Assembly: GCA_965178125.1 (NCBI GenBank)
Contig: OZ237738.1
Location: 992,001 to 1,056,000 of the forward strand
Direction of reading: 5' to 3'
Length of the DNA: 64,000 nucleotides
From: Bilabrum cf. latius
Taxonomy: Eukaryota
The position numbers and the translations under genes were made by a program. This document shows, one piece after another, positions 1 through 64,000 of this stretch. Below the pieces are notes generated by a model. That model was not told where the DNA came from. It did not search any database and saw only the letters and a list, made by a program, of their open reading frames with translations. How positions within the stretch are numbered: position 1 is the stretch's first letter; the number at the start of each line of letters is the position of its first letter.

Positions 1-105
1 GCGTTCGACTTCGCCGCGTGTCGCCGTTCATCCTTTCCCACCATGTTACACACCACTACCTTACTCCCTTCCCCCGCCCCATGCACGCCCCGCTAGGAAT
101 TGCAA

Positions 106-978
106 TCATAGAACGCGCAGAACAGCGATGCCATCATGACCTTTTTTTCCAACCAGCTGAATGCCGACGCTTTCTAGGCCCGGGTGAGACGCTGCGTGCT
201 CGTTGAACCTAGCAGCCCCAATCGCGTTCTGGTCCCCTGGTGAGGGGTCCATGACAGCACCCCCTCGAACGATGTTATCCGCAATTATGAGGCCCCCTTG
301 TCGCATCAGTGGCAGCAACAGATCCAGGTACTCGCAGTAGGATGCCTTGTCGGCATCCAAGAACGCGACGTCGAACGGAGCAGGTGCTTCCTTGGCCCCG
401 CGTCCGCAAGCTGCATTCATCTGGGCGAGCGACTCCGCCGCTTTTCCAACGCGAATTTCGCAAATATTTCCAAGGCATGCCCGATGCAAGTTTTGGCGTG
501 CAATATTGGCATAATTAGCATCAAGCTCCAGAGAAACGAGAGCTCGATCAGCCCGCGGGATCTGCTCTTCTGCTTCGAACGCGGCAGCAAGTTTGCTGTC
601 TTTCACGAGGCTTCGTCCAAGCCACATTGTGCTATATCCTCCAAGTGTACCAATTTCTAGGATTCTTTCGGCTTTCACCAGCCTGCAGAACATCATCAGT
701 AGCTTTCCTTGCGTGGGAGAAACGTCGTACTCCGGCAACCCAGCTTCTCTCGCAGATTTTAGGGTGCATTGCGCAGCATCGCTCCAATAATTGGTCAGTT
801 TATCAGCGGAATCGGATCTATACACGAACGTGGAGTCCAGGTACTCGTCGACCTTGGCAATAATCGGATCCTTCAACACTCTAAACCTTGGCTCAGCGCA
901 AAATCGCGCAATTGTTCCTCGTGACGAGGACATGCAATAGCCTATGTGATTATAGTATTTTATTGACTGCCGCATCAT
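106..978 (-). CDS. SAM-dependent O-methyltransferase (CCoAOMT/Methyltransf_3-like)
   Basis: Motifs VSPTQGKLL, RILEIGTLGGYST, FDVAFLDADK, GGLIIADN, GKKGHDGIA. Ends at TGA. The true start may be the ATG at 933. Confidence 0.9.
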   Translation of the reverse strand: MMRQSIKYYNHIGYCMSSSRGTIARFCAEPRFRVLKDPIIAKVDEYLDSTFVYRSDSADKLTNYWSDAAQCTLKSAREAGLPEYDVSPTQGKLLMMFCRLVKAERILEIGTLGGYSTMWLGRSLVKDSKLAAAFEAEEQIPRADRALVSLELDANYANIARQNLHRACLGNICEIRVGKAAESLAQMNAACGRGAKEAPAPFDVAFLDADKASYCEYLDLLLPLMRQGGLIIADNIVRGGAVMDPSPGDQNAIGAARFNEHAASHPGLESVGIQLVGKKGHDGIAVLRVL

Positions 979-1170
979 CGTGTTCGGCTTTGAGAGTGAA
1001 GGCAGGGCGTTTGAAATGAAGGAGCTGCAGTAAGTGCTCTTGTTCCGGATTCATGCAGGGCACCCGAGCGTATTCAGACAGTCGCTGCAGAGATCACATA
1101 CAGGGTGCTGTCGCTGTTCGGGGTGATGAGAACTATATTTATAGTATCAAGACAACGATGTGGAAGTATC

Positions 1171-4146
1171 ATGGGCAGACGTTACCTCAGTTGCTCTGGG
1201 GCAGCCCTGTTTCGAACTATGTCGACATCGGCTGGCTCAATGTCTCATACGGCGGTCATGCCAGCTGAGGTGGCAGCTGCTGTGCGTATAGGATGCAATC
1301 ATGCCATACAAAGGGCCGGACTTGGGCCGCAGTCGCGTGTAGTGGTCCTGGACGCTACAGTTGGGGGAGGTTCCCACGCGAAGGCAATCCTTGAATCGAA
1401 CCCTAATGCTGTTGTTCTAGGTGTGGACCGTGACCATGAAGTACTGGAGCAGGCATCCAACGCACTGAAAGAATTTCGAGGCCGTGTGCTCCTTGCCCAT
1501 GCCTCGTTCGCAACGATGCCCGAGGTGCTCGCAGCAGCCAAGCCAGCGTTGCAACAGATGGGTGCCTCTGAGATTGCCAGCTGCGAGGGCCTCGCGAGAC
1601 ACGTAGCAGCGAATGGTCCATTCGCCAGCAGCACCGCAACAACACCAGACCAGCCGCAGCAGCTGGCCGATGACCGCCTATCCGTACCGCTGGTCGGTGC
1701 CGTCCTCATGGATCTCGGCATCAACTCCGTGCACGTGGATGACGCATCCAGGGGGTTTTCGTACAGGAGAGACGGGCCGCTGGACATGAGATTTGACAGG
1801 TAGGCCGGCAAGCAGTCCTATTTCGATGCAGACCGCAACGCAGAGGGGGAGCCGCCGCCGAACGCCTTTCCGTACATTTTGGAGACGTTCCAGCACCAGT
1901 CGCGGGGCCAGGGGCCCTCCCAGCCAGAATCCAAAGGGTACCAGCAGCAGAGCATTCGCTTGTTTCAGCCGGGCGAGCCCATACCCGCACCGTTGGAGGG
2001 CTCGCCGTGGGTGTGGCAGCGGCCCATCGTGTTCACTGCCGCAGACCTCGTGTCCCGCCTGCCCGTCAGGATGCTCGCCAGCCTGTTCGATGAAATGGGG
2101 AACGAGCCCAGGGCCGAATTGTGCGCGAGCGCCATCGCGCACTGGAGGGGCGCGGGCCGTCACCGCAGGAAGATTCAGTCCACGCTGGAGCTCAGGTATG
2201 TGATCGACAGGGCGGTCAGCGCGCTGGAGGGCACGCTCCCCGACCACCTGCTGCGCAACAGGGGCAAGAGAAGGAAGCTGAAGATGGCCAAGACCGAGCA
2301 CTGGATCTCGGCCAGGGACAGACAGCGCACTTTGCAGGAGATGGAGAGATCAAAGCCGTGGAACCCAGCGGTGCTCGGCCGCTGCTTCCAGGCGCTCCGA
2401 TGTGCGGTCAACAACGAGATGGCGCACGTGCGAGATGGCATCGCCGTGGCTGGGTCGTTGCTGGCGCCGGGGGGCACTCTCGTGTCCCTTGCGTTCCAGC
2501 CCACCGAGGACCGAGCCCTCCGCAAGTTCGCCAGGGTACGATCCATGCGCGGCAGCGCGCAGCGGCTGGGTCTGGCAGACCTGCAGCAAGAGGCGGAGCG
2601 TCTGAGCACCTCGGTGAGCAATGCAGAGGATGCGCTTTCAGTCCCAATGCAAATTGCGGGCCCCGACAAGCGGGTGTCCGCGAGAGAAGGGGCGGGGGAA
2701 GGGCAGGACGAGGGAGTCGAGGCGACGAGACCTACTATCAAAGAGGTGCGGAAGAACCCCCGCGCCAGGAGCGCAAGGCTGCACGTGGTGCAGATTCACA
2801 GCCCGAGGGTTCCCTCCGCGTGGAAGGAGAGGCAGCAGATGGAGCTAGACTGGCTGCAGGGCCGCATGGAGGAGCTAGACGAAAGCACCGAGGAAAGCAG
2901 CCGCGCTGGCAGCGAGGGCGAATCGGATCGCGCGGGGGAATCGCGCCCACCTCGGGCATTCGCCGGCGCACACGACTGGAGCCAAGACGGGGACAGGGGC
3001 CTCGAGTTGCTGCAGCGCCTAGCAAGCGAATACCCTGAGGCTGCCGGCAGGTTGACCGGCCGCAAGGTCTTCTTCCCGTCCTGGGTGGAGATGGCCATGG
3101 TGAAGAGCGACAAGACCAAGCGCTGGCAGAGACGCATGCACAGGGCAGAGGTTCGGGAGGCCAAGCATGCTGCGGACGAGGCGCAGCGGAGGAAAGAGGT
3201 GGCGCAGGGGGTGGGCTTGGATGACTACGCCAGCGACGGTAGTGAGGTAAGCATTCGCTTCGAAGACAGGAAGAACTAGGGCCGAGACAGCCCAGAGCAG
3301 GAGGGCTGGGGCGACGCAGATGAGGCAGAGATTGCCGACAGGAGCGGCCTCGCGGACTAGACCATGAACGAATAGACTGCAGGAGGCGAAGAGAGTCGGC
3401 AAGAGCAGCGCATTGCCCTGCCCGGTGTCGAGGCAGGCAAGGGCGGCGTGAACATGGAAGCGCTGTCGGACATGCAGGGAATCAGGGCGAGCCGCCTGGC
3501 CTCCATGCAGGCAGACATGGTGCGGCAGGGCGTGCCTGTGCATGTGGATGCAGAAGCGCTGCAGGGCATGCAGGCGCTTCTAGACATGGAGCTGCAGAGC
3601 GGCAGGAGCCCCGTGGATCTGCAGAGGCAGCCCGTGGTGGCCCCCATGGATGCAGAGCAAGACAGCGGCGGCGTGTATACGGTGCAGGAGGAGGAGGAGG
3701 AGGAGGACGATGCGTTTAGCAAGGCGTTTGCTGGGGGTGGTCGTACTGGTTTGGGCGGCGAGGAGGACGACGTGAGTCCCGAGGAGCTGATTGCCATGGC
3801 GGAGCAGAGCAGGATGCGCGATGGAGAGGCCGGTGAGGTGGGTATGGATGGTGCAGTGGGTGAAGGTGAGGGTGATCTCGAGTGGGAGGGGGCCGAGGAA
3901 GGGGGCGTGTCGGACGGCAGCGACGTGGAGGGCAGCACGCTGGGCCACGAGGTGCGGACGGTGGAGCTGGAGCCTGGGCTATTCGAGGAGATGAAGCAGC
4001 GCGCTCTGGAGAGGGGCTTGTCACACGAAGAGGTTGGAGAGCTTTACTCTGGACAGGACGGCGGCCCTGTTGCCTTCGATTTGGACGCGATGGTCGACTC
4101 GAGCGATGACGGAGGGGAGGGGTTCAATCCGAATGGGAGGCAGTGA
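1171..4146 (+). CDS. rsmH: RsmH/MraW (METTL15-like) rRNA m4C methyltransferase with probable organellar transit peptide and long acidic C-terminal extension
   Basis: Motifs [61 protein letters not shown]-track pieces 1105-1803, 1879-3279 and 3448-4146 share one frame, separated only by TAG (1801, 3277, 3358, 3373). Ends at TGA. Start uncertain (1126 or 1171). Confidence 0.85.
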
Positions 4147-4276
4147 TGCCGCGATTTAGTATGCGGTGTGAACAGGTATACACAGAACGAACACCAGTGG
4201 TGGTATACTTCTGTCCATATGCAATGCGCCTGTGCATAACGTCCACGCCGTGATGGGCTATGCCCTAACAGCGACG

Positions 4277-4996
4277 TCAATGGCACGCAGCGTCGGTGAC
4301 GCCAGCTGTTCCCGCAGAGTCCCCGATGGGCGAAAAAAAGAATACGCCTAGCGCCTCTCCGGCACACACGGCAAAGAAAAGACCCACGTTGAAGGCTGCG
4401 AGGAGCACAATGGTTCAGAAACAGCAGGCAAGTCTGCACAACGGAACGCGGAGGGGGGGGAGATGCAATTAGAGTGATGTCTTACTCATGGCAACAAGCA
4501 TGTTAATGAATGCAACTGCTGTAATAACAAAGTAGAGGAGGGCGTCGATCCCTCGCAAAGACCACACGAGGTACGTCGCCGGCCGCGCCATGCCGACCTG
4601 TCTCGCGGATCCACCGGCGGGCTTCACGGCCGACACCTCCCCAGAAGAAGGTGGCATTGAGACGTTCGCCTCAAGATCGTTTGATGCAGATGCATGGCTG
4701 CGCGGGGCTGTTGCTGGATTGCAGTTGCACGAGGAACCGGCACCAATCGAAGGCCCATCAAGCAAAGGCTGCACTCCTAGTTCAGCTGTCCCATCGCACC
4801 CACAGCCGCATGAGCCTGATTTTGTCATCCATGTCATGAAATGCCTCCTAACCCACACGAGAAACTGCCGGGCGACTCCGAACAGCATGATTGCGATTAA
4901 CGCACCGCAATATTGCCCGGGAGTTTTCGTGACCCAAGAATTGAAGAGGATCGTGGCCTCGATAGAATTGTAAAATGTCATCTACATCATCATCAT
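4277..4996 (-). CDS. Ctr/COPT copper transporter, 2 exons
   Basis: N-terminal MMMM(TAG)MTFY. The MLVAM|TFNVG motif is joined across a GT-AG intron at 4396-4485. GEALG (GxxxG) helix. C-terminal ..ACH then TGA. Confidence 0.88.
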
Positions 4997-5091
4997 GGCT
5001 GCAGGGGTGGCGCTGACAGGATCGAGGAGAGCAAATATAAACAAGAAATTCGCAAGCCTGAGTGCATCCCTGTGCCGCTGACGAGTGCACT

Positions 5092-6531
5092 TCAGCTGAC
5101 ATCTTTGCCCTCCATCGCAGCGCCCGAACCTGCCTTTGCAATGGCAGGCGGCAGGAAATCAGCAGGCCGAACGACTTCAGGCACTTTGGCGGCCTCGCAG
5201 ACCGAAGCTCCGAGCCTAGCATCCACCAGCCTCAGGTACATGGCCACTCCCACGGGCAGCGCACGGTCGTTGAAATCAAACGTCGTGGCGTGCAGCATGG
5301 GGTTCTCTCGCCCCTCCTCCTCCGTCCCAACGAACCAGTAGCAGCCAGGAATCTCCTTGGTGTAGAACGCAAAGTCCTCGCCGCCGAGCACGGGCAATCC
5401 ATCCGAAGATACGGAAGCGGCATCAGCACCAGTCAGGTCAACTACCGAACCTTCGCCGAGTACTTCGGCTGCAGCCTTCCTCGCGGCCTCCGCGGGCCCC
5501 TTGGCATTCACCAGGGCAGGGTAGAGGTCGGTGAAGCTGACCTCGGCCTCGCAGCCCCCGGCCAGTGCCGCCCCCTTTGCCACCTCCGTGACCCTCCGCA
5601 TGACCGTCTCCGTCACCTCGTCCCTCAGCGTGCGGATGGTCCCGCTGAGCTTCACCTCGTCCGGAAGAACGTTCCTCGCTTCGCCCCCGTGGACCGTGGC
5701 CACCGATACCACAGCGGAATCGAGGAAATGGACTGACCTGGAGACCACCTGCTGCAGCCCCACCACCACGTGCGCGGCAGCAAGCACCGCGTCGGCTCCG
5801 TCCCCCGCGGAGGGCTGGGAGGCGTGGCACCCCTTGCCCCGGACAACAATGTCAAGGTCGGTGACACGCGCCATGACCGGCCCGCTGGCCACGCGGATGG
5901 TGCCCAGCGGGAACTTGGGCCAGTTGTGGAAGCCGTACACCTCTGAGACGCCTTCGAGGCAGCCTTGCTCTACCATGGGCTTCGCACCGCCTCCGCGAGG
6001 ACCCCCTTCTTCGGCTGGCTGCCAAAGCAGCCGCACGACAGAGTCGCTAGGGATGCGGTCGCGGTGGGCGAGCAGAAGGGTGGTTGCTCCGAGCAACGTG
6101 GCCATGTGTCCGTCGTGCCCGCACATGTGAGCCGCACCGGGGCGACGGGAGCGATGAGGCAAGTGTGGACTGCACTCTGTCATGGGTAGAGCGTCAATAT
6201 CGGACCGGAGAGCGACAACTCGAAGCCCCTCGTCGTTCCGTGCAGCAAAATCGCCGTCGGCGCCGTCACCGGCTGCCGGCCCGCTTCCCCGCACATCAAC
6301 CACCAAGCCAGTCTCCGCCAGCGACCGAATATCTTTTTCGTCTACCCCAAGAGCGACTAGCTGCTCTCGGATCAGCGCGCTCGTATCCTTCTCCAAGAAG
6401 GCCGTCTCGGGCTGGCTGTGCAAGTGGTGTCGCACCTTCACAAGCGATTTGATAAGATCGGCAGTCAAAGCCGACTGCTTGACATCAAATGACGGTGCTG
6501 CGGCATCGCTACTCCCGCCAACGGCTGCCAT
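5092..6531 (-). CDS. M20D-family amidohydrolase (IAA-amino acid hydrolase/hippuricase-like)
   Basis: Motifs RHHLHSQPETAFLE, ALRSDIDALPM, MCGHDGHM, WQPAEEG, GKGCHAS, GGEDFAFY, LHATTFDFND. No introns seen. Ends at TGA. Confidence 0.92.
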   Translation of the reverse strand: MAAVGGSSDAAAPSFDVKQSALTADLIKSLVKVRHHLHSQPETAFLEKDTSALIREQLVALGVDEKDIRSLAETGLVVDVRGSGPAAGDGADGDFAARNDEGLRVVALRSDIDALPMTECSPHLPHRSRRPGAAHMCGHDGHMATLLGATTLLLAHRDRIPSDSVVRLLWQPAEEGGPRGGGAKPMVEQGCLEGVSEVYGFHNWPKFPLGTIRVASGPVMARVTDLDIVVRGKGCHASQPSAGDGADAVLAAAHVVVGLQQVVSRSVHFLDSAVVSVATVHGGEARNVLPDEVKLSGTIRTLRDEVTETVMRRVTEVAKGAALAGGCEAEVSFTDLYPALVNAKGPAEAARKAAAEVLGEGSVVDLTGADAASVSSDGLPVLGGEDFAFYTKEIPGCYWFVGTEEEGRENPMLHATTFDFNDRALPVGVAMYLRLVDARLGASVCEAAKVPEVVRPADFLPPAIAKAGSGAAMEGKDVS

Positions 6532-6666: not shown

Positions 6667-7875
6667 ATGGACCATCAGTAGCAGCGAAATGCAAAAAAGC
6701 GCCGGAAGGAACGTGCTCGGCGCCAGCCTACTACTCAAAGTGGCGGAGCACAGGAGGAAATCGACGCCATTGCCGCAAAAACGGTTCGTTAGCTCGTGGT
6801 TGGGGCCATGGTAGGATGTGCAGCTAGAATATCATCTGTAGACGACGCCGTTAAGAAGCTCTCGAGGCCTTTACAGCTTGACAACGCAAGGGCTCCCAGC
6901 AAACGCCCGCACGGAGCAAACCGTTCGAATATCATGGGATGGAGGAAGAAAGCAAAATTGTTGCGAGAGCAAGAGCATACAAGTGCGACACCGGTTTGGA
7001 AGGCTTCCCTGCCGCCTCATCCCACGTGGGGTTGGGTCGCGTCGTGCCATCAGGCCTGGGCGCGGTACGCCATCGGGGTGGTTCGATTTGCAGCCAAAGC
7101 GAGAGCTTCGGAGGAAGTGCTTTGGGAGCTCGACCTCACGTTTGCTGCCGCCTTGGTGACCCGATGCGCGAGCTCGCCGTCGTGGGTGGGAGCCGAGGTT
7201 GTGGTGCTGCGGGAGCTTCGGGACTCGCTCGTGATTGCTAGGTGCTCTGGCCCAAAGGCAAGTGATGCAGGCAAGGAAGGCACACAGGCTGCCAAGGGGG
7301 GTGCGACAGGGAACGATTCACGCCCGGCATCTGATGCCGTTGCAACCAAGCTGATACCAAAGCGAGGCACCGCCATACTGGTTCCGCTCCCAGCGCGCGG
7401 CGCCAAGGAGGTGGCGAAAGCAGCCCCTCTCCAGCTGGCGGGGTCTTTCCTCGCCTTGGGAAACAAGACGAACAAGACCTCTGGCAGATGGTTGGAGGGA
7501 TCGAGTGGCGGTGAGAGGGCGGGTGCGGGTGTGAGCAGCAGCGCGGGTCCGGTCAGCAGCACGTCGTTGGAGCGCGCGCCCGTGCCACCCGAGGCCACGC
7601 CATCTCTAGAGGGAGTGGCGACTGGAGCGAGCAGCAGCAGCAGCAGCTCCTCGTCAGCTGCAGCGGCGGGTGGTAGTTCGGGCACTAAGCCATTGATGCT
7701 GCCCCGTAGCCTGATTCCACCGGAGGGCACGCCCTGTCGTTGGATCGAGTGCCTGTGTGAGGCCATGCGGTGGCGAGGGGGGCCGCGGGGGTGCGGGGAG
7801 GCGGCCTGGGAGCAGCACAGGCAGGACCTGAGGAGGAAGGCTGCGGAGAGGAAGAGGGGTGGATTTGGCTCGTGA
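6667..7875 (+). CDS. POP4: Probable RNase P/MRP subunit p29 (POP4/Rpp29)
   Basis: LDLTFAAALVTRCASSPSWVGAEVVVLRELRDSLVI...KLIPKRGTAIL resembles the Rpp29 core. Extends 5' through TAGs at 6679 and 6790 to ATG 6667, giving a basic NLS-like N-terminus. Confidence 0.6.
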
Positions 7876-8022
7876 TGGGCAAATGACGCAGCGCTGGATT
7901 TGTGGAGCATAGCTCGCAGGGCAGCGTATGGATGGTCATTGTCGAGACTGCATGCCGGTGTGTGATGACAGCCTGAGTGCCTCGTCAGCGACACGCATGC
8001 AAGTGCAAGTTCCATTTGAAGC

Positions 8023-11000
8023 ATGCTGCAGGCTCGCACCCGGGCCTTCTCCAGCAAATCAACCAGGCCGGTACAAAGTTTATTGTATAATATTCTAAAT
8101 GCGGACGACCCCCGCGGTATTGACCTTTCTAAGGGCGAGATTAGCCAGCTCTTGCGATCACGAGGAGCGACTGCGTGGAGCGTGCTCGCGGCAGCCGACT
8201 AGATGAGGCAGCGCACCTCTGGCCCAGGGGTTAGTTACGTGGTAAATCGCAACATAAATTTCACGAACACTTGCGTGAAGAAATGTGGATTTTGTGCCTT
8301 TTCGCGGACTGGATTGAACAAGGAGGCTTATCACTTGCCTATTTCGAAAGTAGTGGCACGCGCAGAAGAAGCTCGTGACCTTGGGGCAACCGAAGTGTGC
8401 ATTCAAGCCGGGTTGCCGCCGGGAATGCCTGCGGATCTCTACTATCGAACTGCAGCCGCAGTGAAGGAGGCTTGTCCTGACATCCAGATCCACGGCTTCA
8501 GCCCTGAAGAGGTCCTCTATGCCTCCAAAATTGGGAAGCTAAGTATTCGGGAAGTTCTTCTCGCGCTGAAGGCAGCAGGTGTAACGTCACTGCCAGGCAC
8601 TAGCGCTGAAGTTCTTGTCCCAGAGGTGCGGGAGCGTCTAGCTGCAGCACGCATCAGTGTGCAGCAGTGGACTGAAGTCGTGCGCACCGCCCATGATGTG
8701 GGCCTCCCGACGACATCCACCGTAATGTACGGGCACTGTGAGCACCCTGAAGACCTGGCAGACCACTTGATTCACCTGCGGGATCTCCAGAGGGCGTCGA
8801 CAGGCTCCATCGGAGGCATCGCCACCGATGGTGCCGTGGGCATCACCGAATTCGTCCCGCTGAGCTTTGTCGCAGCAGACGCCCCCATGGTGAAGCGCAG
8901 GCACGACCACATCATGAATGAGCTCTAGACCGAGCTCGGCGACAGCCCTGTCACGCCGGGCGGTTCTGCACCTGGCAGTGCGGGTGGGACGAATGGGCGC
9001 GTCCCAGTTCCTCTTCGGTCTGGCCCCTCAGGGGAGCAGGTCCTGCTGCTGCACGCGGTGGCTCGGCTGGCGCTCAACAGGGACATTCCCAACATGCAGG
9101 CATCGTGGGTCAAGGAAGGCCCCCGCATGGCCCAGCTGCTGCTGCAAGCCGGCTGCAACGACCTTGGCGGCACGCTCATCAACGAGTCCATCTCGACTGC
9201 AGCGGGGGCCAAGCATGGCCAGCTCATGAAGCCCTCTCAAATCCGCGCCCTAGTGCGTGGGCTAAACCCGACCATGGCGTGGGGCGATGGACAAGCCAGC
9301 ATGGGCGAATCCAGTGGCCAGTTGGAGAGCGAAGCAGAGGAACCACCACCAAGCAGTGGGTACGATGCAGCCACGGATGCTGACGGTGCTGAAGAGCTGA
9401 GGTATCCATGGCAACGAGACACGGGCTACAAGCAGCTGAAGAAGTTCTCTTCCCACGCTACTGACGTGGAGGCAGCTCGCGAAGCCGCAGTAGAGCCACT
9501 GGAGGCTGTCAGCACGGAGCAATCAGCGGTGGAGCAAAGGTTTGGCTCCTTCTTCGCTCTTGCTGCCTCGTCCGAGCACAGGTTTAGAGACAAGATCCCT
9601 GGCAGGGCGACCGGCAGCTCTGCACGGTCGCGGCGGTCATCCGCACAGTCAGTGGCTGCGCAGCAGCGCGGCATCTGGACAAGGGCTGCTGCCGATGCAA
9701 GAGTTGGGCGTGGCTTTGCAACACCGAGGCGAGGCCTGCACTGCACCGATGCTGCCGGGTAGGCCTTTGAGAAAACCGTTACGTTCTCGCCTAGCTATAC
9801 GCTTGTACCAACCTATGAGTGTTTTAACAGGTGCGCTTATTGCAACTTCCGGCAGAATTCGAACGAAGCCAAAGCCAAGCGGGCACAGCCGGCCAGCGGC
9901 GACGACGCTGCCCTGGCTCAGGTTGACACTGCCCAGTGGGGCTGGATGCAGGACGGCGATGCGCGAGTACGCCTGAATGCGCTTCGACGGCCAGAGGTGG
10001 AGCGGGCCTACGGCGGCTCTCGGATCAGAGAGGCCCTTGTGCTGTCCGGAGAGGTGTCCCCTGGGAGCTGGAGGAGGCCACTCTTCCTCCAGAGGGTCGA
10101 AGGCATCTGCCACGCCGCCCTAGAGGCGGGTTTGCTACCGCACACGAATGCAGGGCCACTCTCAGAGGAAGAGATGCGAACTCTGAGGAGGACCAACGTC
10201 AGCATGGGGCTGATGCTGGAGCAGCTCACTACCAAGCTAGCAGCTGGCGTGCACAGGTTCGCTCCTTCCAAGAAAGATCCTGGTCAACGGCTGGAGCAGC
10301 TGCAGCAGGCAGGACGCTTGCGGGTCCCGTTCACAACCGGCATCCTTTGCGGCATTGGTGAGAACGAAGGCGATCGCATAGAGTCGATGGAGGCCATTGC
10401 GCGCACGGATGAGGACTTTGGGGGGCACATCCAGGAAGTGATCGTGCAGCCGCACGCGACCGGTGAGTCCCAGCTGGACGCCAGCCTTGGCACGTTTTCG
10501 CACGATGATTTGGTGGCCACGGTCAGCGCGGCCAAGCGCCTGCTCCCGCCGCACATCGCGGTGTAGGTACCACCCAACCTAGCCCTCGCCAACTAGGCTG
10601 TGGAAGCACGCAGCAGCAGCATCTCCGATGGATTGGACCGTGATAGTGCATAGCACGAGGAGGCAGCACACGACGTTGCTGCCTCTTTGTCTCGATCTGG
10701 CGAGGGCGCCAGGTTGCTTGACTGCATCGGGGCAGGAGCCACTGACCTCGGTGGCATCTCTCCGCTCGACGAGGTGAATCCATCCCACGCCTTCCCGCTC
10801 GTGTCGGGTCTGCAGGCGTTTCTAGCATCGCACGGTGTTGCCCTGCTGCCGCGGCTTCCTGTGCACGACGAGTACATTCGGGACGATGCTGCTTTGGCAA
10901 GGTGGGTCGATGCATCGCTGCACGATGCCGTGCGGCAACACAGGGCGGCAGTGCAGCAAGAGAGGGCTGCCTTGCTGAACAACGCCTCGGAGCAGCGGCA

Positions 11001-11112
11001 GCAGCGCTAGCGCCCGTCTCTATCTTTGGCTGGGACTCAAGATGTCGGTGGATAGCCCTATGGGCTGCCAGTGGATGTGACCGCAGCCTCTGAGTCCGAG
11101 CACCGGCTCTGA
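8023..11112 (+). CDS. Bifunctional FO (8-HDF) synthase: N-terminal CofH radical-SAM domain fused to C-terminal CofG radical-SAM domain
   Basis: CofH: VSYVVNRNINFTNTCVKKCGFCAF, PGTSAEVL, TTSTVMYGH, ITEFVPLSFV, NMQASWVKEG, GCNDLGGTLINESIS. CofG: VTFSPSYTLVPTYECFNRCAYCNFR, PHTNAG, NVSMGLMLE, PFTTGILCGIGE, HIQEVIVQP, (TAG)VPPNL, DLGGISPLDEVNP. One frame with 8 TAGs (8200, 8926, 9760, 10564, 10594, 10651, 11008, 11053). Ends at TGA. Confidence 0.9.
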
Positions 11113-11310
11113 GCAGTAGGCATCAGGGTCTAGGGCCTAGACTAGGCGCTCATTGTGGACCCGGAATCATGAATGCCTCCCGCGGCGTATTGTGCCGGAA
11201 CAATTACACGAAGTAAACATACCGATACGAACCACCAAGACAAATCTCAATCAATCACGCAGACGTACATGGAGAGGCTTGGTCCAGGCAAGTCAGCTGG
11301 CCAAGAGATC

Positions 11311-14300
11311 TCAGTTGCCACGCAGGGCCGTCGCAAAGGTCTGCACGTATGTTGCGTATGCAGGCGCGTTTGTCCTCGCGAGATTCAGCAGCTGCGATCG
11401 AATCATCTGCCCAGTAGCAGGGTCTGCCTCCCCGCCCTCTGCCTGGGCCTGCTGCAGCAGCGCCATGGTGGTGCCCTCCACAAACTGCTGCAGCTGCGCG
11501 TCAGTCAGCGCCGGTGGGACATGCAGGAATGCATGGAGACCCGTCCCGGGGGGTGGGACCGTGTACGAGGTGTTGTAGCCGTAGTGCTTCCTGACTGGCA
11601 TGACAGCGGGCCAGTTCTCCTTGAGCAGCAGCGAGCCAGCAGGGGTGGGCTCCCCGCGGAACAGGGCGTCGATCTGGTCGTCTGTCATGGGCTCGTGCGA
11701 TGCGGGAGGCGTGCCCGGAGAATCTTGCTCCGTGGGCGCAGAGCTAGGCAAGGAGTCGCCATCAGCAGCAGCATACGAAGCAGCAGCCCCGCTCGCAGAC
11801 TCTCCCGCGCCCCCCTTGCCCTGCTTGCTCGCCCCATGTGCCTCCAGGAAGGGCCCCAGAGAGTCCTCAATTCCGAGCAGACCGCTCCTTGCGAGCACTG
11901 CCCTTGCCTGCCTCCTGGCCATCGACATCCACAAGGCTGGATTGCCGGCAAATGTGCCCGGGAGTCCTCCCTTTGTGGATCCATCCGCCCCCTGTGACTG
12001 CAAGTCTTCGGCCTCCTCCTCGTCTTCGTCGTTCGCATCGCTACCACGCTGGGTAGACGCTGCCTTCCCTGCCTGCATGGGCTGCTGACCCCCAGCACTC
12101 TACTTGCTCGGTGCAGCTGACTTCGTGCCCTTGGTCTGCTTTGTAGGTGTTGCAGACGGTGACTTGGAGCCGCTCCTTTTCTTCCCCTTGGCCTTGCCTC
12201 GCTTGCCCCGCCTGCCCCTGCGCGTGCTTCTCACTGCAGACCAGTCGTCATCATCGTCATCGTCTTCATCCTCCTCCTCCTCCTCTTCACTATCACGCAT
12301 TCCGTGGCCAGCCAGCCGAGAGGCACGGCTCTCCGCCTACCCGTCGCCCTCTGCCCCTTCGGCCCCCTCTGGCAGCTTCTCGCCGCCCCCCCCTGTGCCC
12401 TTCCAGCCCCTCATGGCACCCCGTCCAATCTCCTCGTAGGCCTGCTGGATGGCCCAGCCCATTGCCTGGGCCTGCGATGGGTAGATCACGCTGGATGGTG
12501 GGCCCACGATAGAAGCCGCTTGCTTGGCGGCAGGACCCACCATATCGTCCAGGTTGTATCCAAGCATGCCGCCGCACCGGACAGACTCGGCCACCAGCCG
12601 CACCATCTTGCGCTGCAGCATCTGCTTCCTCTGCAGGTGCCTCTTCTTGACCAGCTGCAGCCGCAGAGATTCCGCCCTCACAAAGGCCTTGGCTCGCACC
12701 CTTGCCAGCGGTGTGTCGAGCACCTCGCAGCAGGTGGGGCAGCACCACTCGGCGTCCATGTTCACGTCGTCCTCTGCGAGGCCCAGGCAGCTCAGGTGGT
12801 ACGCCTTGTTGCAGAAATCGCAGCATAGCAGGTCGCCCCCAGCCGCACACACCCCGCATGCCTCGTCGTGGAATTCAAGGTTCGTGAAGATCTCCTCCCT
12901 TCGCCTCTCCTTCCAGTGCGTGTGCTCCGGGTGCGCCTTCCACCAGGCATAAAAGAACCCGATGCACGCGTTCAAGGAGCGCTCTCTTCTGGCAGACACC
13001 AGCTCCTGCGCCTTGGCCTCGACAACGTCGAGGTAGTCTGGCTCGTCTGCCCATCCGCTGCCCGCTCTGCCGCTGAGGCGCCTCCCGTCCTTGGAGACCG
13101 GTCGCCGTGGAGGAAGGCCCAGGACCGCTCTGGCGTCATCCCTGGCCTGCCGCACCGCTGCCTTGCGCACGTCCTCGTAGACCGCCATGAAGTCCTTGCC
13201 GTGCTTCTCCAGAGCCACCCAGAAGCTGGCTGCCTCGGGAACGGTCCAAGTGCGCCACTCGTTCTCAGCCCTCTCGCCCAGCCATGCGCGCCGCCCAGTC
13301 ATGAGTGCCGACGCGCGCTCCTTGTCGTACCCCGATTCGTGGAGCGCTCTGAAGGCCCGCTCGCGGGCGTGTGGACGATACTGCTCCACAAATCCCTCCA
13401 GCCGCTGGCACTCGTCGCTCTCCGAATCCATCCACCCGGCCCGAGCTGCAGCCTCTGGGTCCCAGACCATTTCGCCTCCCCTCGGCCGCCTGTCCCCCTC
13501 GTCCTCATCGTCGCTGACACCGGCCAGCGGGTCTTCCGACAAGTCAGGGGCTAGCTCCTCCGCTGCTATGCGCGTGTCCAACTCTGTTCCAGTGGTAGGC
13601 ACGAACGACAGGCGGCCGAGGGAGGGCGCTGGCTAGGAAACAGATCCAGAAGAGGAGAAGGATGAGGAAGAGGACGACACTGGCCCGCTGCCGCCAGCCC
13701 TCCCGCTCGATGCACCATGGCTGCCGGCATATCCAGGCCCGGGCCTGCCGCCTACATACGCAGGCAAGTCGCTCTGGTACTTGTCCCCCACTGGAGGGTC
13801 CTTCTTCTTGACCACCTCGGAGGACCTGAAGCTGCGGACGATGCCCCGCACCACCTGGGCACGGGGCGCAGACCCAGTCCCGAGGCCTGAGCTCGCAAGC
13901 AGCCCCTGGGCCGCGCCTGCGTCCCTGGCTCGACCCAGCCCGTATCTCCTCCTCATCCTGTCCTGCTGCTTGTTGAAGTGGTGGCTAGCTGCCGCCATGG
14001 CAGCCGAGATGGGTCCGATGGCGGGCATGGGCTCGCCTAGATCGTAGAGGGCGCGGTATGCCATGGGCGTGAGGCCTGGAAGCAGCTTCTCGGGGACCTT
14101 GATGGACCTTCGGTGCAAGGTCGCGGCCCGTGGCTTGTGCGCCCGTGTGGAGCGGCGGGGCCTGTTCTTGCGCTTGGTCAGCGCACTGGCGATGGTAGAT
14201 GCAGCGCTGGCCGCCGCCCGTCTCTCCGTGCGTCTTCGCTTGGACGAGGGCTCATCGGTATCGTCCTCATGATCATCCTCATCCTGCTCTTCCTACCCGT

Positions 14301-50300: not shown

Positions 50301-51608
50301 CTTGGATGGACTGCTCCAAACTCTGCATATCTCGATACCGATCCCAGGACTTTTCGGCCACAGCGAGACGCTGTTTTGCCTTGCGAACAACCCCCTCCAA
50401 GTCACCCTGCTGTCCCCGCGCCTGCCTCATCCTCTCCCTGTGCGCTTTCAGCTGCGCCTCGGCCCGATCCAATCCAAGAGCACGAATCACCATGTCAAAC
50501 CTCTGTCTAGGCGAGCCCGATGCCATCCTCTTCGCCTCATCTTGGGTCAGCACCTGCAGCGGATTAGTGGGATCCACGCCGAAATGCCGTCGAATGGCAG
50601 CGAGCTCCTCTTTCGCCGCCTTGCCCTAGCAGATGGTCTTGAAATGGATTTGCTCCATTTTCGTGCCGCTGATGCCCCGGCTCGCACGACTGCTGCCCCC
50701 CTCAGCTTTGGCGCCTGCTGCAGCCGATCGCAGCGTGCCGCTCTCAAGCTTGAACCGGTGAGTTGCACCAGCGCCAGCACCCGCTCCCTGCCGCCGGATG
50801 GTTCTGGTGACGCGAATGAAGTCGCCGTAGGTGCTGTCTCTGTATGGGAGTGCTGGTGGACCTGCGAGAAAACACACGGGGTGATTGCGAGACGCTTGTG
50901 AAAGGGGGTGGGCGGGGTAATGGGTGGCAACCGGCAACCCGAAGCAAGAGTGGGTGGTCATGTGTGCTCACGCTCTCGACCGATAAAGTGTCGCTTCTCG
51001 TGTTCCTTGTTGAAAAATGTGACAGCAACTTCGCAACGACTACACCCGCTCCTGATCATCTTCGCCAGAGAGGCACCCCGGCCAGTATCCGCCGGGCGAC
51101 AGTCGAAGGCAAGCATTAACGCAGCACAAATCGCGCTCTTGCCGCTGCCGTTCTTCCCAGTTATGACATTGACATTGGGTCCAAGATATGCAATCACATC
51201 TTCGTGGCACATGAAGTCTAGCATCGAAATAGCGAGGATCGAGCCCGGATCCGGGTGTTGGGCTCGAATGGCAAGCACACCCTCGTCGACGGCCTCATAC
51301 CCGCCAAATAAGGGCACTTCTGCTTTTCCTAGGATGCCCAAGCCATCCGAATCACTTTCGTCTGAGTAGTCGTCTGGATCGCTTTCGTCGAGTGACTCGC
51401 TACCTTCTGGATCGGCGACTGCCGAGCTGGCTTGTGTGCGCCGCCTCCGTGACACGTTTGCTGCTTCCTCATCCGAGCTTTCCTGATCTTCTGTCATTTC
51501 AATGGCTTGCGCTGGTCTACGGCTTCCTACACGCCGCCTCTTGGAAGCGCGGCTGGATTGGATCACGTCGCGGTCATCTGGATCCGCGCTGGGGGTTTGG
51601 CTAGACAT
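47371..51608 (-). CDS. SMC6: Structural maintenance of chromosomes protein 6
   Basis: DFMCH, Walker A ITGKNGSGKSAI, Q-loop VLTQDEAK, long coiled coils, signature MSGGEKS, Walker B VLDEFDVFMD (SMC6 type), QFILITP. Intron at 50862-50971. Many in-frame TAGs. Ends at TAA. Confidence 0.9.
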
Positions 51609-55418: not shown

Positions 55419-56633
55419 ATGGGTTCTTCGTGGTCTTTCTTGAGTATTCCATAGTGGTATTCTTATGGTGGCAAACACTTTGGGAAAGCAGGCTTCCGAG
55501 CGGCGCAGGCTCGCTGGGAAGCAAAGGCAATGGCCGCCACGTCGACAAAACGAAAGGCTGCTTCTGGGGCCGGTAGTGGCGGAGATGATGCATTAGGATG
55601 CAGCTGGGCCAAGGGAAAGACTGTTTTAGTGACTGGGGCAAACTCTGGGTTGGGTTATGAAACGGCTTTGAGCCTTGCTTAGCGCGAAGCTAATGTGATA
55701 ATGATTTGTCGGAATAGCAAGAGAGCCGAGGCTGCGGCAGCAGCAATTGAGAAGGAGACTGGTCGAAAGCCAGCGATTGAAATCTGCGACATGTCTTCTA
55801 TGAAAAGCATCCGCGAGTTTTCGCAACGTTGGGCAGCATGGCCTGAAGCAGCGCCGGAAGCTTCTGCCGAGAGCGGCGAGCCCGAACCTGCTGCCGCCGG
55901 CGGCGGTCCAAGGGGGAGACGCGTTGACGCTATCGTGAATAATGCCGGCCTGATGCTGAAGGACTATACCGCCACTGATGAGGGCCTAGAGACTGTCTTT
56001 GCGACCATGGCTGGCGGCACGTACTACCTCACTCTGCTCATGTTGCCCCATTTGCAGGCGGTTCGAGACGGATCGGTGGGTAGAGTAATCAATGTGACGT
56101 CCGCAGGCGGGTACATGGTCCGGGCAAAGGCCAGCCTTCTCAATATGCCACCGTCCTCATACTCGGATCTGTTCGCATACTCGCATTCCAAGAGAGCTCA
56201 GATCGAGATCAACGACTTGATGGCTGAGAAAGTGGCAGCTGGATCCCGGTCTTTGGGACCAGGCTCGAAAGGTAAAGTTGTGCCAAGACCGATCTCTTTC
56301 GTGTCCATGCATCCTGGATGGTCGGCAACACCTGGACTAGCACGCTCCATGCCATCCTTCTCTGAATCGAGCGATCTTCGAAGTGCCGCAGAAGGAGCTG
56401 ATACTATCGTTTGGATGCTTGACATAGATGACAAACACGCCGCCAGGTTGAACGGAGAACTAGTCTTCGATAGGGAGGCTACATTTAAGCATTTCACAAT
56501 GGCTGGGACTCAGCTTTCAGAGAGCGAGCGTGATGCAGTGTGGAGCACATTAGGGAAGATCTATGATGTCGACGCCGATGAATTGATTGCCACCTGCGTT
56601 GAAGGTGTCACGAAAGAAAGTGGTGGACACTGA
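55419..56633 (+). CDS. Short-chain dehydrogenase/reductase, DHRS12-like
   Basis: The Rossmann motif VLVTGANSGLG lies upstream of TAG 55680 and in frame with VNNAG, VINVTSAG, YSHSK and SMHPGWSATPG. A further TAG lies at 55452. Confidence 0.88.
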
Positions 56634-57902
56634 AGGGGTATTGAATGATTTGTTCGCGAGATTTATAAGGTTTCATTATTCTGAGCGAAAAACTCTTAAT
56701 ACAATTAGGTCCGACACGAGCACTTATATTAATACTAAACTGTGATTACAGGAATGATGGGTGTGGCCAAGCTTGGTTGCAAATTCTGTGGATGTGGATT
56801 GTAGCGAAAGATGTGGGAAGGTGTCTGATCTGTGGAAAATAGCGAAGGAAGCTCTTGAGCTCAAGCTGAAGCCAGGAAGCAACACACTTTGAAGTCTTAT
56901 GACTATTGCACTCGTTGCACCCATATCAACTAGGATATTGCCTGTGCACGAATTTACGTTTTGAATCTCAAAGCCAAAGGTTCAATATCATACATGTTTT
57001 GCTACGGAGGTAGATGCTTATCCTATGTCAGTGGTTTAACCATGTTCATGCTCATCATTTATTTGATAAGCTTGAAAGAAAATGAGCAAAGACACAATGC
57101 AACTGTGTTGCAAGATGGTGATGCGAAAAATGTCGGAGGGTGTGAACGGAGCAAAACACGGGCAAAGATCTTCGGCAGGGCAGAGCAAATGCAAACAGTG
57201 CATTTGAATTGTTTACAATGGTGCAGCCATCTGGTAGGTAGGGTTGCTAAAAGAATGGGAAGTATACTGCCTCGCTGTAGTACGATTCGTTTTTATTATA
57301 TTAAGCTATCGCAGTAAGCAGCCCTTTCTGCTTTGGGTAATTGGCGTCTGAAATTTTAATTTGAAGAATTACATTAACAATGTGAAAGAAATCAAGCACT
57401 GTATAAAACCAACCTAGGTACTATCAATGTAGATTCAGATGTGACAATCTTAACGGTGTGACATATGAAATGTTTCTGCCTCTGTTTCATCGATATATTT
57501 GCCGAGTCTACCGCCACAAATCAGCTATCAAGAGATGATCCAGCTACGGAGGACGAGGTTGAAGTTTGCCCTCGTTGAGGCACTTCTTGCGTTTCCGTCC
57601 AATATTATCTTTGCTTGCAGTGATACGGCTGCAACTCATAAATGAACGAAGGTAAGCTTTTTGTGTACATTGTTTTTACGAGCCACTTTTACTCTAATAA
57701 AGGTCTTGCAAAACCAGGGCCGGCAAGATACGCATTTCGTGTATAGGCTGACTCAATTCATGCATTCGTTGTGATATCAAAAAGTGTGCAAAAGTTTTTC
57801 CTATCTCTTTGTGTGCTGTTAAAGATGACACGACTAAAACAAAATCTGTCACAGATGCCCGACTCTAGTCACATAACTGTTAGGGATTGCTTGATTCCAA
57901 TA

Positions 57903-58068
57903 GAAATCATGTAGCGCAACATCCTGCCTCGTCTTTGTCATAAGACGTTGATGGTAACGCCTTCAATAGCCTGCTCCAGGTTGAGGAAATCATGTAGCGC
58001 AACATCCTGCCTCGTCTTTGTCATGAGATGTTGATGGTAACGCCTTCAATAGCCTGCTCCAGGTTGAG
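57903..58068. repeat. Tandem duplication, 2 x 83 nt
   Basis: 57903-57985 and 57986-58068 are identical except for two transitions (cataagacgtt vs catgagatgtt). Confidence 0.92.
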
Positions 58069-58865
58069 GTATCCTCAAGACATCTCTCTATGAATATAAC
58101 GTCCTAATCAGTCCCTTCTGCCATTCGCGCAGTATCAAAACACTCCATCGATATTTCATCAGGTCCTACGGTTGGTGACGCAGGATCGAGATATTCCAAT
58201 TGATCTTTTGCATTCTTTCCTAGCAATAGAATGTAGTGACCTGCGTAGGATGGAATCATCCGCTTCACAGTAGATTTGCCGTACGAATCTGTGCTAGAGT
58301 GCAGGAAGCGGAGATCAACCAAAACGATTGCAGCTACACATGAGTTGCCTTCCAGAACGTCGAGGAGGTCCTCTAAAGACAACTTCTACTCGTGAATTGC
58401 TCCTCGATTTGTCAGGACAGGTGACCTTGCCGGCCCCGATTCAGCAACATGGTTGGTCTCTGTGATTGCAGATTCCGAGCTAGAGCCTTCGCCCCCCCGA
58501 AAGCGCCTAAATCGATCTAGCACTCTTTGCTTATCTTCATTGAGCCCAGAGTAGAAAGGCAAAGATCCATGCGAAGGGGCAACACCAGCAAGAGTCGTAT
58601 AAAATGCCCACTAAAACCCGAGCTCGTTCAAAACGACGCACAAATCGATTGTCCAAACGCTGTCGGTCCCCGCGACGTCCAGCAAATGTGAAAGCGCCAG
58701 CTTCGAGTGCTCTGGTGTCCACCCCACGCCTGGATCGCACAGCTGCAATCTCCCAGCAAGTACCATGGCAATGCACGCAAGCCCACAATCCCAGGACTCT
58801 AGCTATCGAACTTTTACAGGTTCTAGGCACACGGGCTCTTTTAATCTTGCAGCAGCAGCAGCCAT
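57990..58865 (-). CDS. GUCD1: GUCD1-like protein (guanylyl-cyclase-domain-containing 1, peptidase C39-like fold)
   Basis: VR(TAG)LESWDCGLACIAMVL, DSVWTIDL, IVLVD, YAGHYILL, YLDP, ARMAEGTD(TAG)DVIFI. TAG at 58803, 58611, 58386 and 58104. Ends at TGA. Confidence 0.85.
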
Positions 58866-62083: not shown

Positions 62084-62278
62084 GTGCGGAGTTTCTCCGC
62101 AGACTCTCCTGAATTTCGTCCACGAACAACGATACACGCGCAGGGTTGCTACCATTAAATATCTTCATCTTCTTCGGTGTGCACAACCAAAGGAAACCCT
62201 TTGACGCTCACAATTACGCATACACGGCTTCGTTTGTACTAAAAGGGGGAGTCAATCCAGTTTGTGTGTTGAATTAAT

Positions 62279-64000
62279 ATGCCCTGGGCCCCGATTCGTT
62301 CGCTACAGTGGCTTGCCCTGTCCGGCTTGCTCCTTGGCATAACCAGCGACAATCTTGCCCAAGGAATAGAGTGGCCTTCTTCGCTGTCTGACGTTACGCA
62401 ACGTAAGATCGACAGCAATAGATTGCTTGGATCAGGTGTGATGCGTTCTTCATGCTGCCAAACGGCCGTGTGTCTCGTATTCTTGAGTATACCCGCAGTG
62501 TTTCAACCAACGGACGCGAAAACCTGCCAAGCGCCAGGCTCTGGTCATTGGGATGGGCTGCCCCGAACAAGCATAGCTGCCAATATTGCGCCATAGCTGC
62601 AGTGCGCGGCCCAATCTGCATGGTGAGCAGTTGATGGTGTGGACCAACGTGTAGATTCAACATCGCACCGCCGAAGCCCGTCGCGCCCTTTTACAGTCCA
62701 TAAAGCCGCAGGGACATGAAGAGCCCGTTCACCGCTGTTGTGTTGCATAGCGTGTGGCCAGAGGCCGGAATCATGCTTACCAGGTCTATTGCAACTGCCG
62801 CACTCGCCAAAGCTGGCGATGATCGCGAGCGCAGCTCGTTCGGCCAATCAGCGCCGGACCACATGGCCTTTGCAGCATTTGAGTGAGCCTGTTTAGATAA
62901 ATGGTATGCTTGCCTATGATTCGTATTGTCTGTCTGGCCCTGTAGGACTCATTTTCTCCAGCTTCCATTTCGGGGAATGTCCACCCCTGTCTGCAACCAA
63001 AATCGCGCGGATGACCCATTAGTACCCCCAAACGAGCGCACCACATCCAATTCCCGTCCGCAGTGTGCTTCCTGGATCCACTGGAAGGCAGCAATCTCAG
63101 ACGCTGCTCAGGTTAGAGAGCCACCTGGCAACCGCGACCGCAGCGTGCGGCGGGAGCGCGGTGGTGGCGCTGCACGGAGCCGACAACTTGGGGCCGCGGG
63201 CGGCTGGCAGACTGGCTGAAATCGTGCTGATGTACTCGAGTGCATCGCATGATGGTGCATCCAGTGAGAGTCAAAGGGTCAGCAGCTGGCAGCAAGGAGC
63301 TGGAGATGCTTGCCGCGTCGCGGCCGCTGGTGGCAGCACTAGGCTTGGTGATGGTGACGAGGACCCGTACGACGAGCAAGATTTGGAAGATGCTGATGCT
63401 GATGCTGATGCTGCATCGAGCTCTGGGTCGAGGCGCGCAGGAGCCCGACCACAGAACCGGGTCCTGCTGCTTCTCACTGCCGCTGCAGGCGCCGGCCAGA
63501 TTCGGCAGCACTACCATGCGATGCACCGCGCCGTTTTGCTCCAGGCTGAGATCAACAGCACAGTTACAGCGGCACGGGCCTCTTCTTCTTCTTCATCGAC
63601 CTCTGGCCTGGCCCCGGAGGCACAGCAGGCGCTGGCCAAGGCTCGGGATGATGCAGCGGCCCACCTGTCGGCACTGCGGGATTCGCTCCCGCGAGACCTG
63701 CACAGGGCATTCTGGGCCCAGCACCAGGCGATGCGGGAGGGTGGAAGCGCGGGGGCGGTCGCCTGGCGGCAGCTGGCAGGCCGGTCCCTGTCTGTCCCTG
63801 TCCTGACCCATCTGCCCTGGGCCCCCGCTGCTGTGGCGCTGGGACTGCTGCGGCACGTCGCGGACTCGGAGTCAGAATGGAGCCGGGGCATGACGAGTGA
63901 CAAGCGCGAGCTCAGGCGCTGGGACCAGCTGGACCTCGGCCCGCTGCCGATGGCTGCCTCGGCGCTGGGAGGGTACCCGTGGCAGCAGCTGGAGCGGGTC
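62279..64000 (+). CDS. Hypothetical multi-exon protein with probable signal peptide, 3' truncated by the window
   Basis: Hydrophobic N-terminus and several GT-AG-like signals. One frame is open from ~63065 to the window end. Exon structure not resolved. Confidence 0.45.

Follow-up and report, generated by a model that had tools for sequence, protein, structure and literature searches.

Nuclear genetic code changes outside the ciliates are few, and those in which UAG and UAA carry different meanings are fewer. In the excerpts of the cited papers on which we rely here and below, the fornicate Iotanema spirale reads UAG as glutamine and uses UAA and UGA as stops, with UAA predominant (Panek et al. 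2017, PMC5304391); a CUA anticodon pairs with UAG and not with UAA, and the release factor eRF1 of Iotanema has a T32G substitution (PMC5304391). UAG as glutamine beside UAA as stop is also described for Protocruzia tuzeti and, twice, for phyllopharyngean ciliates (PMC11687900). Other meanings of UAG are serine in the green alga Scotinosphaera, where UAA is a stop (Li et al. 2021, PMC8271138), leucine in a rhizarian (PMC5304391) and glutamate in a ciliate (PMC11687900). The commoner variant (PMC5304391, PMC11687900) is the reading of both UAA and UAG as glutamine (UAR = Gln, NCBI table 6), found in Ulvophyceae, Hexamita, Streblomastix and Amoeboaphelidium protococcarum (PMC8271138, PMC6299283, PMC11687900); Amoeboaphelidium genomes have GC contents of 40.5% and 39.9% (PMC10608142, Table 1). 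In crAss-like and other gut phages that use code 15, TAG is read as glutamine via a suppressor tRNA (PMC9523058). Here we analyze the meaning of UAG in a stretch of 64,000 nucleotides (contig OZ237738.1, positions 992,001 to 1,056,000; hereafter the window, in whose own numbering all positions are given). We think it likely, and hold this with good confidence, that its host is a eukaryote with a high GC content, few introns and organelle-type genes, in which UAG has been reassigned to glutamine while UGA (mostly) and UAA terminate, as in NCBI table 15.

That UAG is a sense codon here leaves hardly any room for doubt. Open reading frames (ORFs) from stop to stop were compared under four codes: standard, TAG as sense, TAA as sense and TGA as sense. 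The standard code yielded a single ORF of at least 600 amino acids (longest 705), and TAG as sense yielded 13 (longest 1398). As controls, TAA as sense gave one such ORF and TGA as sense seven (longest 817), though no stop triplet is more frequent in this DNA than TGA. Multi-domain Pfam architectures were continuous across TAGs: all five domains of a rhamnosidase lay within one frame of 1215 codons, and both radical-SAM halves of an FO synthase within one TAG-containing frame. These two genes are:

8023-11112, plus strand: fused CofH-CofG FO synthase with 8 TAG and a TGA stop, backed by Pfam, homologs and codon counts.
21634-25281, minus strand: GH78 alpha-L-rhamnosidase with SUEL-lectin, with 6 TAG and a TGA stop, backed by five Pfam domains, homologs and RNA.

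Codons were counted in a conservative coding set of 23 segments from 21 genes (14,586 codons), each backed by Pfam, homologs or RNA. It contained 87 in-frame TAG, and neither TAA nor TGA occurred in frame (0 and 0). In the two other frames of the same segments, TAG occurred 110 and 109 times, TAA 39 and 47 times and TGA 226 and 266 times. TAG is therefore not avoided in frame, and the other two stops are wholly excluded. A caveat is that the ORFs were bounded by TAA and TGA, which partly builds in the absence of these triplets from their interior; for this reason the argument relies on homology along the whole length of the frames, the longest of which has 1378 codons. TAG was present in 18 of the 21 genes and absent from those for the O-methyltransferase, the M20 peptidase and MMAB. 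It made up 87 of 659 glutamine codons (13%), counted with CAA and CAG. The TAG/CAG ratio of 0.19 is close to that of TTA/CTA (20/95), which would fit an old and settled reassignment; TTG/CTG was higher (0.36). Q-X-Q contexts around TAG, about 11 of 113 by eye, were near background and carry no weight. The first-pass annotation of this DNA, made from the letters alone, had proposed that UAG is sense and most probably means glutamine, and had seen no internal TGA or TAA; both proposals are borne out by these counts and by the alignments below, and TGA and TAA both end genes. It had also found TAG in 25 of 28 gene models. That most genes carry TAG held, but fewer gene models could be supported. 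Reading TAG as sense inflates the number of spurious ORFs: 101 ORFs of at least 200 amino acids were obtained with TAG as sense and 63 with the standard code, and an example is a plus-strand frame of 234 codons at 4269-4973, antisense to the Ctr gene (4469-5158, minus strand) and without a family match.

UAG could instead be both sense and stop depending on context, as in Condylostoma and the karyorelicts, or be passed by efficient near-cognate read-through. We consider such an ambiguous code unlikely, for reasons that lie in the distribution of TAG along the genes. The deciles of TAG position, from start to end, held 15, 6, 17, 10, 5, 6, 1, 5, 11 and 9 of 85 TAGs, an even spread with neither a pile-up nor a depletion at the 3' end. 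A codon-usage score was calculated from in-frame against off-frame usage, over 40 codons either side of a stop, and the long tails past the last TAG were coding-like (+0.32 for 55 codons in TrpD, +0.47 for 256 codons in MraW). Moreover, the 87 in-frame TAGs are close to the roughly 110 found off frame. What an ambiguous code would account for are two TAGs next to gene ends, one codon ahead of TGA in SHQ1 (its second-last codon, at 46825) and four codons ahead of TGA in the kinase gene (at 35620), so that some termination at TAG may persist. However, two TAGs within five codons of the end in 21 genes are no clear excess (Poisson p ~0.17). The last two TAGs of the FO synthase lie beyond the part covered by homologs, and with ORFs defined by TAA and TGA an absence of TAG termination is not provable at any gene end. 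Codes without a dedicated stop, of the Condylostoma or Blastocrithidia type, were rejected on the in-frame counts of 0 for TAA and 0 for TGA.

The amino acid was determined from alignments in which TAG was masked as X, so that no residue was favored. Homologs of the FO synthase (120), the GUCD1-like protein (5) and GH78 representatives (150) were projected onto the query with phmmer. Two relatives of the window met in these and further searches enter the comparison as well: P0127, a protein from the GH78 search, and L001, a metagenome contig. The sites concerned, and the genes not listed above, are:

10564-10566, plus strand: TAG in the CofG half of the FO synthase, in a near-invariant Gln column (Gln 117/119; MAFFT 35/35).
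23521-23523, minus strand: GH78 TAG within FDFG-X-EFSG (Gln in 109/133 homolog residues).
24694-24696, minus strand: GH78 TAG, with Q in relative P0127 (family column E 48, N 8, Q 4 of 65).
57990-58865, minus strand: GUCD1-like gene, with TAG at 58803.
58803-58805, minus strand: TAG of the GUCD1-like gene, preceding WDCGLAC (Gln in 5/5 homologs).
16445-18661, plus strand: kinesin with undefined 5' end, in exon pieces 16445-16812, 16904-17332 and 17449-18661, with a TGA stop (Pfam kinesin).
17079-17081, plus strand: TAG in kinesin exon 2, EIF-X-NRVYDLF, common to L001 and present in RNA contigs of runs X5, X6 and X7.
17453-17455, plus strand: TAG in kinesin exon 3, G-X-LYIVDLAGSE, common to L001 and present in RNA of both studies.
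20167-20169, plus strand: TAG in a Rheb exon (20134-20363) bounded by RNA joints.

Three TAG columns were strongly conserved, and all three were glutamine (10564, 23521, 58803). A summed log-odds score similar to that of Codetta gave +5.4 bits for Q over 16 columns, followed by S with -14.1, A with -14.2 and E with -14.8. Glutamine was thus ahead of the next residue by about 19 bits, and K was outside the best eight. On the nine columns with at least 20 residues, Q scored +8.2 and A -8.8. As a control, the same masking was applied to real codons (CAG, CAA, GAG, AAG, TCG, TTG and TAC), and all seven types were decoded to their true residue. Masked CAG gave 0.58 bits per column for Q, with a Q plurality in 14 of 76 columns; masked CAA gave -0.24 bits per column, with 2 of 21. 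TAG, with 0.34 bits per column and a Q plurality in 3 of 16, hence looks like an ordinary glutamine codon. We therefore consider it very likely that UAG means glutamine.

The first-pass annotation had listed seven TAG sites as family-typical glutamine positions. Those at 10564, 23521 and 58803 were verified, and the kinesin site at 17453 was mixed, in that the Neurospora chain has Q there and four human kinesin-1 chains have K. The TAG of the minus-strand Ctr gene at 4982 turned out to lie one residue before the part aligned by Pfam, outside the family model, and cannot be called typical of the family. The phosphatase, which holds the remaining two sites (43537 and 43006), and Ctr had no match in the Protein Data Bank (PDB), and the Pfam match of the phosphatase was weak. 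A CAG-TAG-CAG run at 6676-6684, also put forward, is present in the sequence, but the ORF that holds it is without homology support. Pair alignments with PDB chains carried little information on the TAG residue: the TrpD sites were in variable columns, the USP TAGs outside the domain, the MraW TAG at the edge of a conserved block, and the kinase TAG aligned to a Y of AKT1.

Several observations weigh against glutamine. Beside the three conserved columns, the remaining 13 usable columns were variable or preferred another residue. The column at 8200 held E 63, A 42 and R 41 of 183, that at 25006 had a plurality of serine (15/25), the sole column to do so, and the family column at 24694 favored E (48/65). 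The kinesin TAGs at 17079 and 17777 aligned to N of KIF13B and to E, respectively, and the Rheb TAG at 20167 aligned to G of human Rheb and not to a glutamine column. Ten further TAGs of L001, well aligned, matched K (2), Q (2), R, S, G, A, M and E in the window, and BLOSUM sums on these ten sites were 11 for K and 12 for Q. Ordinary Q was 69% conserved between window and L001 in the same contexts, and TAG sites were far less so. The four TAG columns of the L001 MMAB were all non-Gln (G 52/118, S 71/114, E 37/117, K 39/120). We take this mismatch as a sign that TAG arose mostly at weakly constrained sites, an explanation that is incomplete.

A code in which UAG stands for another amino acid (Lys, Glu or Ser), or for several residues, would draw on these same columns, in which E, S, G or N are preferred, on the K of human kinesin-1 at 17453 and the near equality of K and Q on the L001 sites. 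It would have precedents, in the excerpts consulted, in Scotinosphaera (Ser), the rhizarian (Leu) and a ciliate (Glu) (PMC8271138, PMC5304391, PMC11687900). We nevertheless judge it very improbable, given the three conserved columns and the 19 bits or more by which all other residues fall below Q. Masked genuine glutamine codons looked equally unlike glutamine in most columns, and one of the TAGs corresponds to a Q in P0127, the 90%-identical relative.

UAG as glutamine would be compatible with two codes, of which one keeps UAA as a stop. TGA ended 17 of the 21 genes and TAA four, namely:

4469-5158, minus strand: Ctr copper transporter, with TAG at 4982-4984 and a TAA stop at 4469-4471 (PF04145, E 1.4e-16).
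18786-19369, minus strand: last exon of a gene of unknown family, with 4 TAG and a TAA stop at 18786-18788, covered by RNA contigs.
35836-38151, minus strand: RCC1-repeat gene with 2 TAG and a TAA stop at 35836-35838 (Pfam).
47371-50961, minus strand: main exon of SMC6, with 14 TAG and a TAA stop at 47371-47373 (Pfam).

Codon-usage scores were +0.13 to +0.32 for the final 40 codons of the four genes and -0.13 to -0.61, non-coding-like, for the 40 codons beyond TAA, as beyond TGA; in RCC1 the two values were +0.18 and -0.61. The CAA:CAG counts (124:448) predict about 24 sense TAA for a code in which UAA also means glutamine, and none was observed. UGA was likewise never sense in the set. The absence of in-frame TAA and its use at four gene ends make this a code of the table 15 type and not the commoner UAR = Gln, and it is very probable that UAA is a stop. 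A table 6 code as in Ulvophyceae, Hexamita and Amoeboaphelidium, with TAA scarce through high GC, has in its favor that it is the commoner variant (PMC5304391, PMC11687900, in the parts consulted), that TGA is the main stop here and that TAA is a rare triplet in the window (193 on the plus strand). It is highly improbable all the same in view of the 39-47 TAA found off frame and the non-coding sequence beyond the four TAA ends. SMC6 has no in-frame TGA for 200 codons past its TAA. Downstream of the TAA at 18786, an in-frame TGA is reached after 146 codons, past the ends of the X6 and X7 RNA contigs at 18729 and 18713.

Parts of 8001-18000 were contained in twelve public sequencing runs, of which four (X1, X5, X6, X7) were compared over 8001-26000; X5 and X7 come from one study and X6 from another. 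X1, a DNA-like run, held the whole stretch as one contig with 0 differences and none of the intron joints. The contigs of X5, X6 and X7 skipped seven intervals with GT..AG ends (CT..AC for a minus-strand gene): 16813-16903, 17333-17448, 19370-19458, 19978-20133, 20364-20497 or 20364-20730, and 25299-25410. These three runs were taken as RNA-derived because their contigs are spliced at joints missing in X1. Two of the intervals concern the kinesin gene:

16813-16903 and 17333-17448, plus strand: kinesin introns, with GT..AG joints in X5, X6 and X7 that are absent from X1.

Neither other letters nor indels were listed for any of the four runs over this range. At least 23 of the 28 exonic TAGs of 8001-26000 lay inside RNA contig pieces, at least eight of them in both studies; TAG 10564 was covered by an X5 RNA contig with 0 other letters, and a colinear, unspliced X5 contig (21625-25165) included all six GH78 TAGs. 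The mRNA hence contains TAG, which is neither intronic nor edited at contig level, and the agreement of spliced contigs from two studies makes an assembly error or complete editing unlikely. Two reservations apply: X5 to X7 are not recorded as RNA, and X5 is flagged 'RNA? (probably DNA)' despite splicing; and contig-level data drop rare variants, so that editing may still be partial. The Rheb donor at 20363 joined two acceptors, 20498 (X5 only) and 20731 (X5, X6 and X7).

That the TAGs are an artefact of assembly or sequencing error, pseudogenes, TAG-holding introns or C-to-U differences between DNA and RNA is barely conceivable: TAGs 17351, 17423 and 17429 of kinesin, which the first-pass annotation had counted as coding, are indeed inside the intron 17333-17448, and X1 may be the window's own source and so not independent, but three further runs of two studies have the same letters and are colinear through TAG exons, frames stay open for more than 1000 codons with complete domain sets, and relatives keep TAG at the same places.

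Relatives were found with GH78 and with two further genes:

15407-16204, plus strand: MMAB cob(I)alamin adenosyltransferase, TAG-free with a TGA stop (Pfam, homologs), used as query for finding relatives.
11311-15447, minus strand: PHD/PDZ gene with 6 TAG and a TGA stop (Pfam; RNA contig 12419-15291).

The protein P0127 was 90% identical to the GH78 protein over 430 residues, without an internal stop in the stored sequence. It has Q at TAG 24694 and A at 23863, and it ends exactly ahead of TAG 23521, as expected from a gene call under the standard code if the relative has TAG there. A second protein, P0278, came from the MMAB search and was 98% identical to the window MMAB; it is probably encoded on the same contig as P0127. 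Searching metagenome contigs for MMAB yielded L001 (6815 bp, 56% GC), which is syntenic with the window at 12.4-17.7 kb. With TAG as sense, its PHD ortholog forms a single frame (3-4595; 1531 codons) that contains 10 TAGs. The MMAB of L001, with an identity of 68% across the aligned ORF and of 78% in the best tblastn segment, carries TAGs, two of them adjacent. The kinesin motor TAGs 17079 and 17453 were common to window and L001. The second kinesin intron (116 nt) is absent from L001 (6521-6542), where the frame runs through.

In-frame TAG in two relatives makes this the trait of a small clade and not of a single assembly. The proposed members are the window organism, the 90-98% identical relative and the 59-78% identical relative on the environmental contig. 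With the trait in at least two relatives, the reassignment would probably predate the split of this clade. TAG near its off-frame frequency and two conserved TAG positions would indicate that the change is old and complete. Our data point, with about an even chance of being right, to a hitherto unrecognized clade of GC-rich eukaryotes with organelle-type genes. In it, UAG would have come to mean glutamine separately from the changes in fornicates and in ciliates, UAA and UGA would have stayed stops, and the change would be old and complete. Whether its origin is a separate and so far undescribed one we hold to be evenly balanced; UAG as glutamine in a GC-rich non-ciliate was not reported in the full-text literature searched, whose coverage leaves out most subscription journals. 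As to mechanism, a duplicated tRNA-Gln(CUG) gene may have mutated to the anticodon CUA, which is one base away, and the resulting tRNA-Gln(CUA) would read UAG but not UAA. A change in the N-domain of eRF1, in the region of the GTS, NIKS and YxCxxxF motifs (named in PMC5304391), would have removed release at UAG, as argued for Iotanema. The window contains no eRF1 gene. Scanning both the window and L001 for tRNAs found 0 tRNA genes, which does not speak for this proposal, and an Rfam scan of the window matched 0 families.

The window (GC 60.6%) is nuclear eukaryotic DNA. Its introns are 89-156 nt long (one alternative of 367 nt) with GT..AG ends, and the gene density is about one per 2-3 kb. 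Genes of cell biology are kinesin, SMC6, SHQ1, an RCC1-repeat protein, a USP deubiquitinase, Rheb, an AGC-type kinase, PHD/PDZ and the GUCD1-like gene. Enzymes and transport are represented by the fused FO synthase, TrpD, the GH78 rhamnosidase, an M20 peptidase and MMAB, to which an RsmH/METTL15-like methyltransferase, an SDR, an O-methyltransferase and the Ctr copper transporter are added. The FO synthase, which makes the deazaflavin chromophore, has an N-terminal stretch rich in Arg, Ser and Thr. TrpD (38433-39632, plus strand) begins with the first Met of its ORF and has no N-terminal extension; it is nearer to bacterial enzymes (Thermus, E 2e-69) than to PDB chains of 382-383 residues (~2e-36), and its 55-codon tail downstream of a TAG is of low complexity. 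The gene of unknown family (18786-19667, minus strand) is Cys-rich, with one intron and no Pfam family, and had the top RNA contig depth in 8001-26000 (254.6 in X5, against 3-118 elsewhere). In the GUCD1-like gene GC3 is low (0.48), and so is the codon score. A tandem duplication at 57903-58069 (83 bp, two copies, 97% alike) covers its stop and last codons, and a low-GC island (56500-58000, 39-43% GC against 61% window-wide) lies between the SDR and GUCD1 genes.

The first-pass proposal of a stramenopile-like flagellate as host stays a conjecture; the independent origin that it suggested is plausible. The best FO-synthase and GH78 homologs were 45-55% identical. Named FO-synthase matches, at 40-53% identity, were dinoflagellates (Effrenium, Symbiodinium, Biecheleria), Phaeothamnion and Paulinella, the nearest named relatives being dinoflagellates at 40-44%. 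Named MMAB matches were mostly green algae, and a protein-atlas look-up with MMAB returned mixed taxa (Chordata, Zoopagomycota, Oomycota). In a poorly resolved maximum-likelihood tree of MMAB, the query and P0278 were on a long branch outside the named green-algal and fungal/animal clades. TGTAA is the poly(A) signal of chlorophytes; within 110 nt past the stop it occurred in 2 of 21 genes and was not enriched. A green alga was rejected as host on the MMAB tree and the lack of TGTAA enrichment. Amoeboaphelidium was rejected as well: its GC content is about 40% and TAA also means glutamine there, against 60.6% GC and TAA as a stop here, and the MMAB tree does not place the window with fungi. 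Iotanema is unlikely to be the host, with UAA as the main stop there and TGA here. A ciliate is unlikely too, on account of the genome features given below.

For protein collections, the consequences are direct. The standard code would truncate or split 18 of the 21 genes examined; the GH78 fragment of the relative stops at a TAG, and full-length proteins of the window were absent among the matches. A GC-rich lineage is at hand with public DNA and RNA-like runs, which carry several organism labels and come from several studies, and if the clade is real, material to test how eRF1 discriminates between UAG and UAA may be obtainable.

Among known systems, code 15 of the gut phages is a phage-borne switch late in infection of bacteria and not the constitutive nuclear code of a eukaryote (PMC9523058, in the part consulted). 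The UAR = Gln codes share with the window the change from stop to glutamine and TGA as the main stop (PMC8271138, PMC6299283, PMC11687900); they differ in that TAA ends four genes here and is never sense. Scotinosphaera resembles the window as a non-ciliate with UAG alone reassigned (PMC8271138), whereas serine is 19 bits below glutamine in the window columns and the MMAB tree is outside the named green algae. Protocruzia tuzeti and the phyllopharyngeans have the same codon table as the window (PMC11687900). The window differs from those ciliates in its 61% GC, its introns of 89-156 nt and the spacing of its genes, about one every 2-3 kb. The macronuclear DNA of ciliates is typically AT-rich, and either its introns are very short or its chromosomes are the size of single genes.

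Iotanema likewise is a non-ciliate in which UAG alone has been reassigned, and to glutamine, and its predicted mechanism, a tRNA-Gln(CUA) together with an eRF1 change, is the one proposed here (PMC5304391, in the excerpts consulted). UAA is its predominant stop, however, in contrast to the 17 of 21 genes ended by TGA in the window (PMC5304391). A further difference from Iotanema and other fornicates is that the window holds MMAB and a METTL15/RsmH-like rRNA methyltransferase, which suggests an organelle with its own ribosome. To our knowledge, fornicates are without such an organelle. The first-pass annotation had correctly named Iotanema as a reported case of UAG as glutamine; its account was incomplete in that Protocruzia tuzeti and, twice, phyllopharyngeans also read UAG in this way (PMC11687900). 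The codon table itself is therefore known, from Iotanema, Protocruzia tuzeti and two phyllopharyngean lineages. Different meanings of UAG and UAA have been described, as far as the excerpts go, for Iotanema, a rhizarian, Scotinosphaera, Protocruzia, some phyllopharyngeans and one oligohymenophorean (PMC5304391, PMC11687900), and a further lineage beside them would add independent evidence on the ways in which eRF1 and a tRNA(CUA) can uncouple UAG from UAA.

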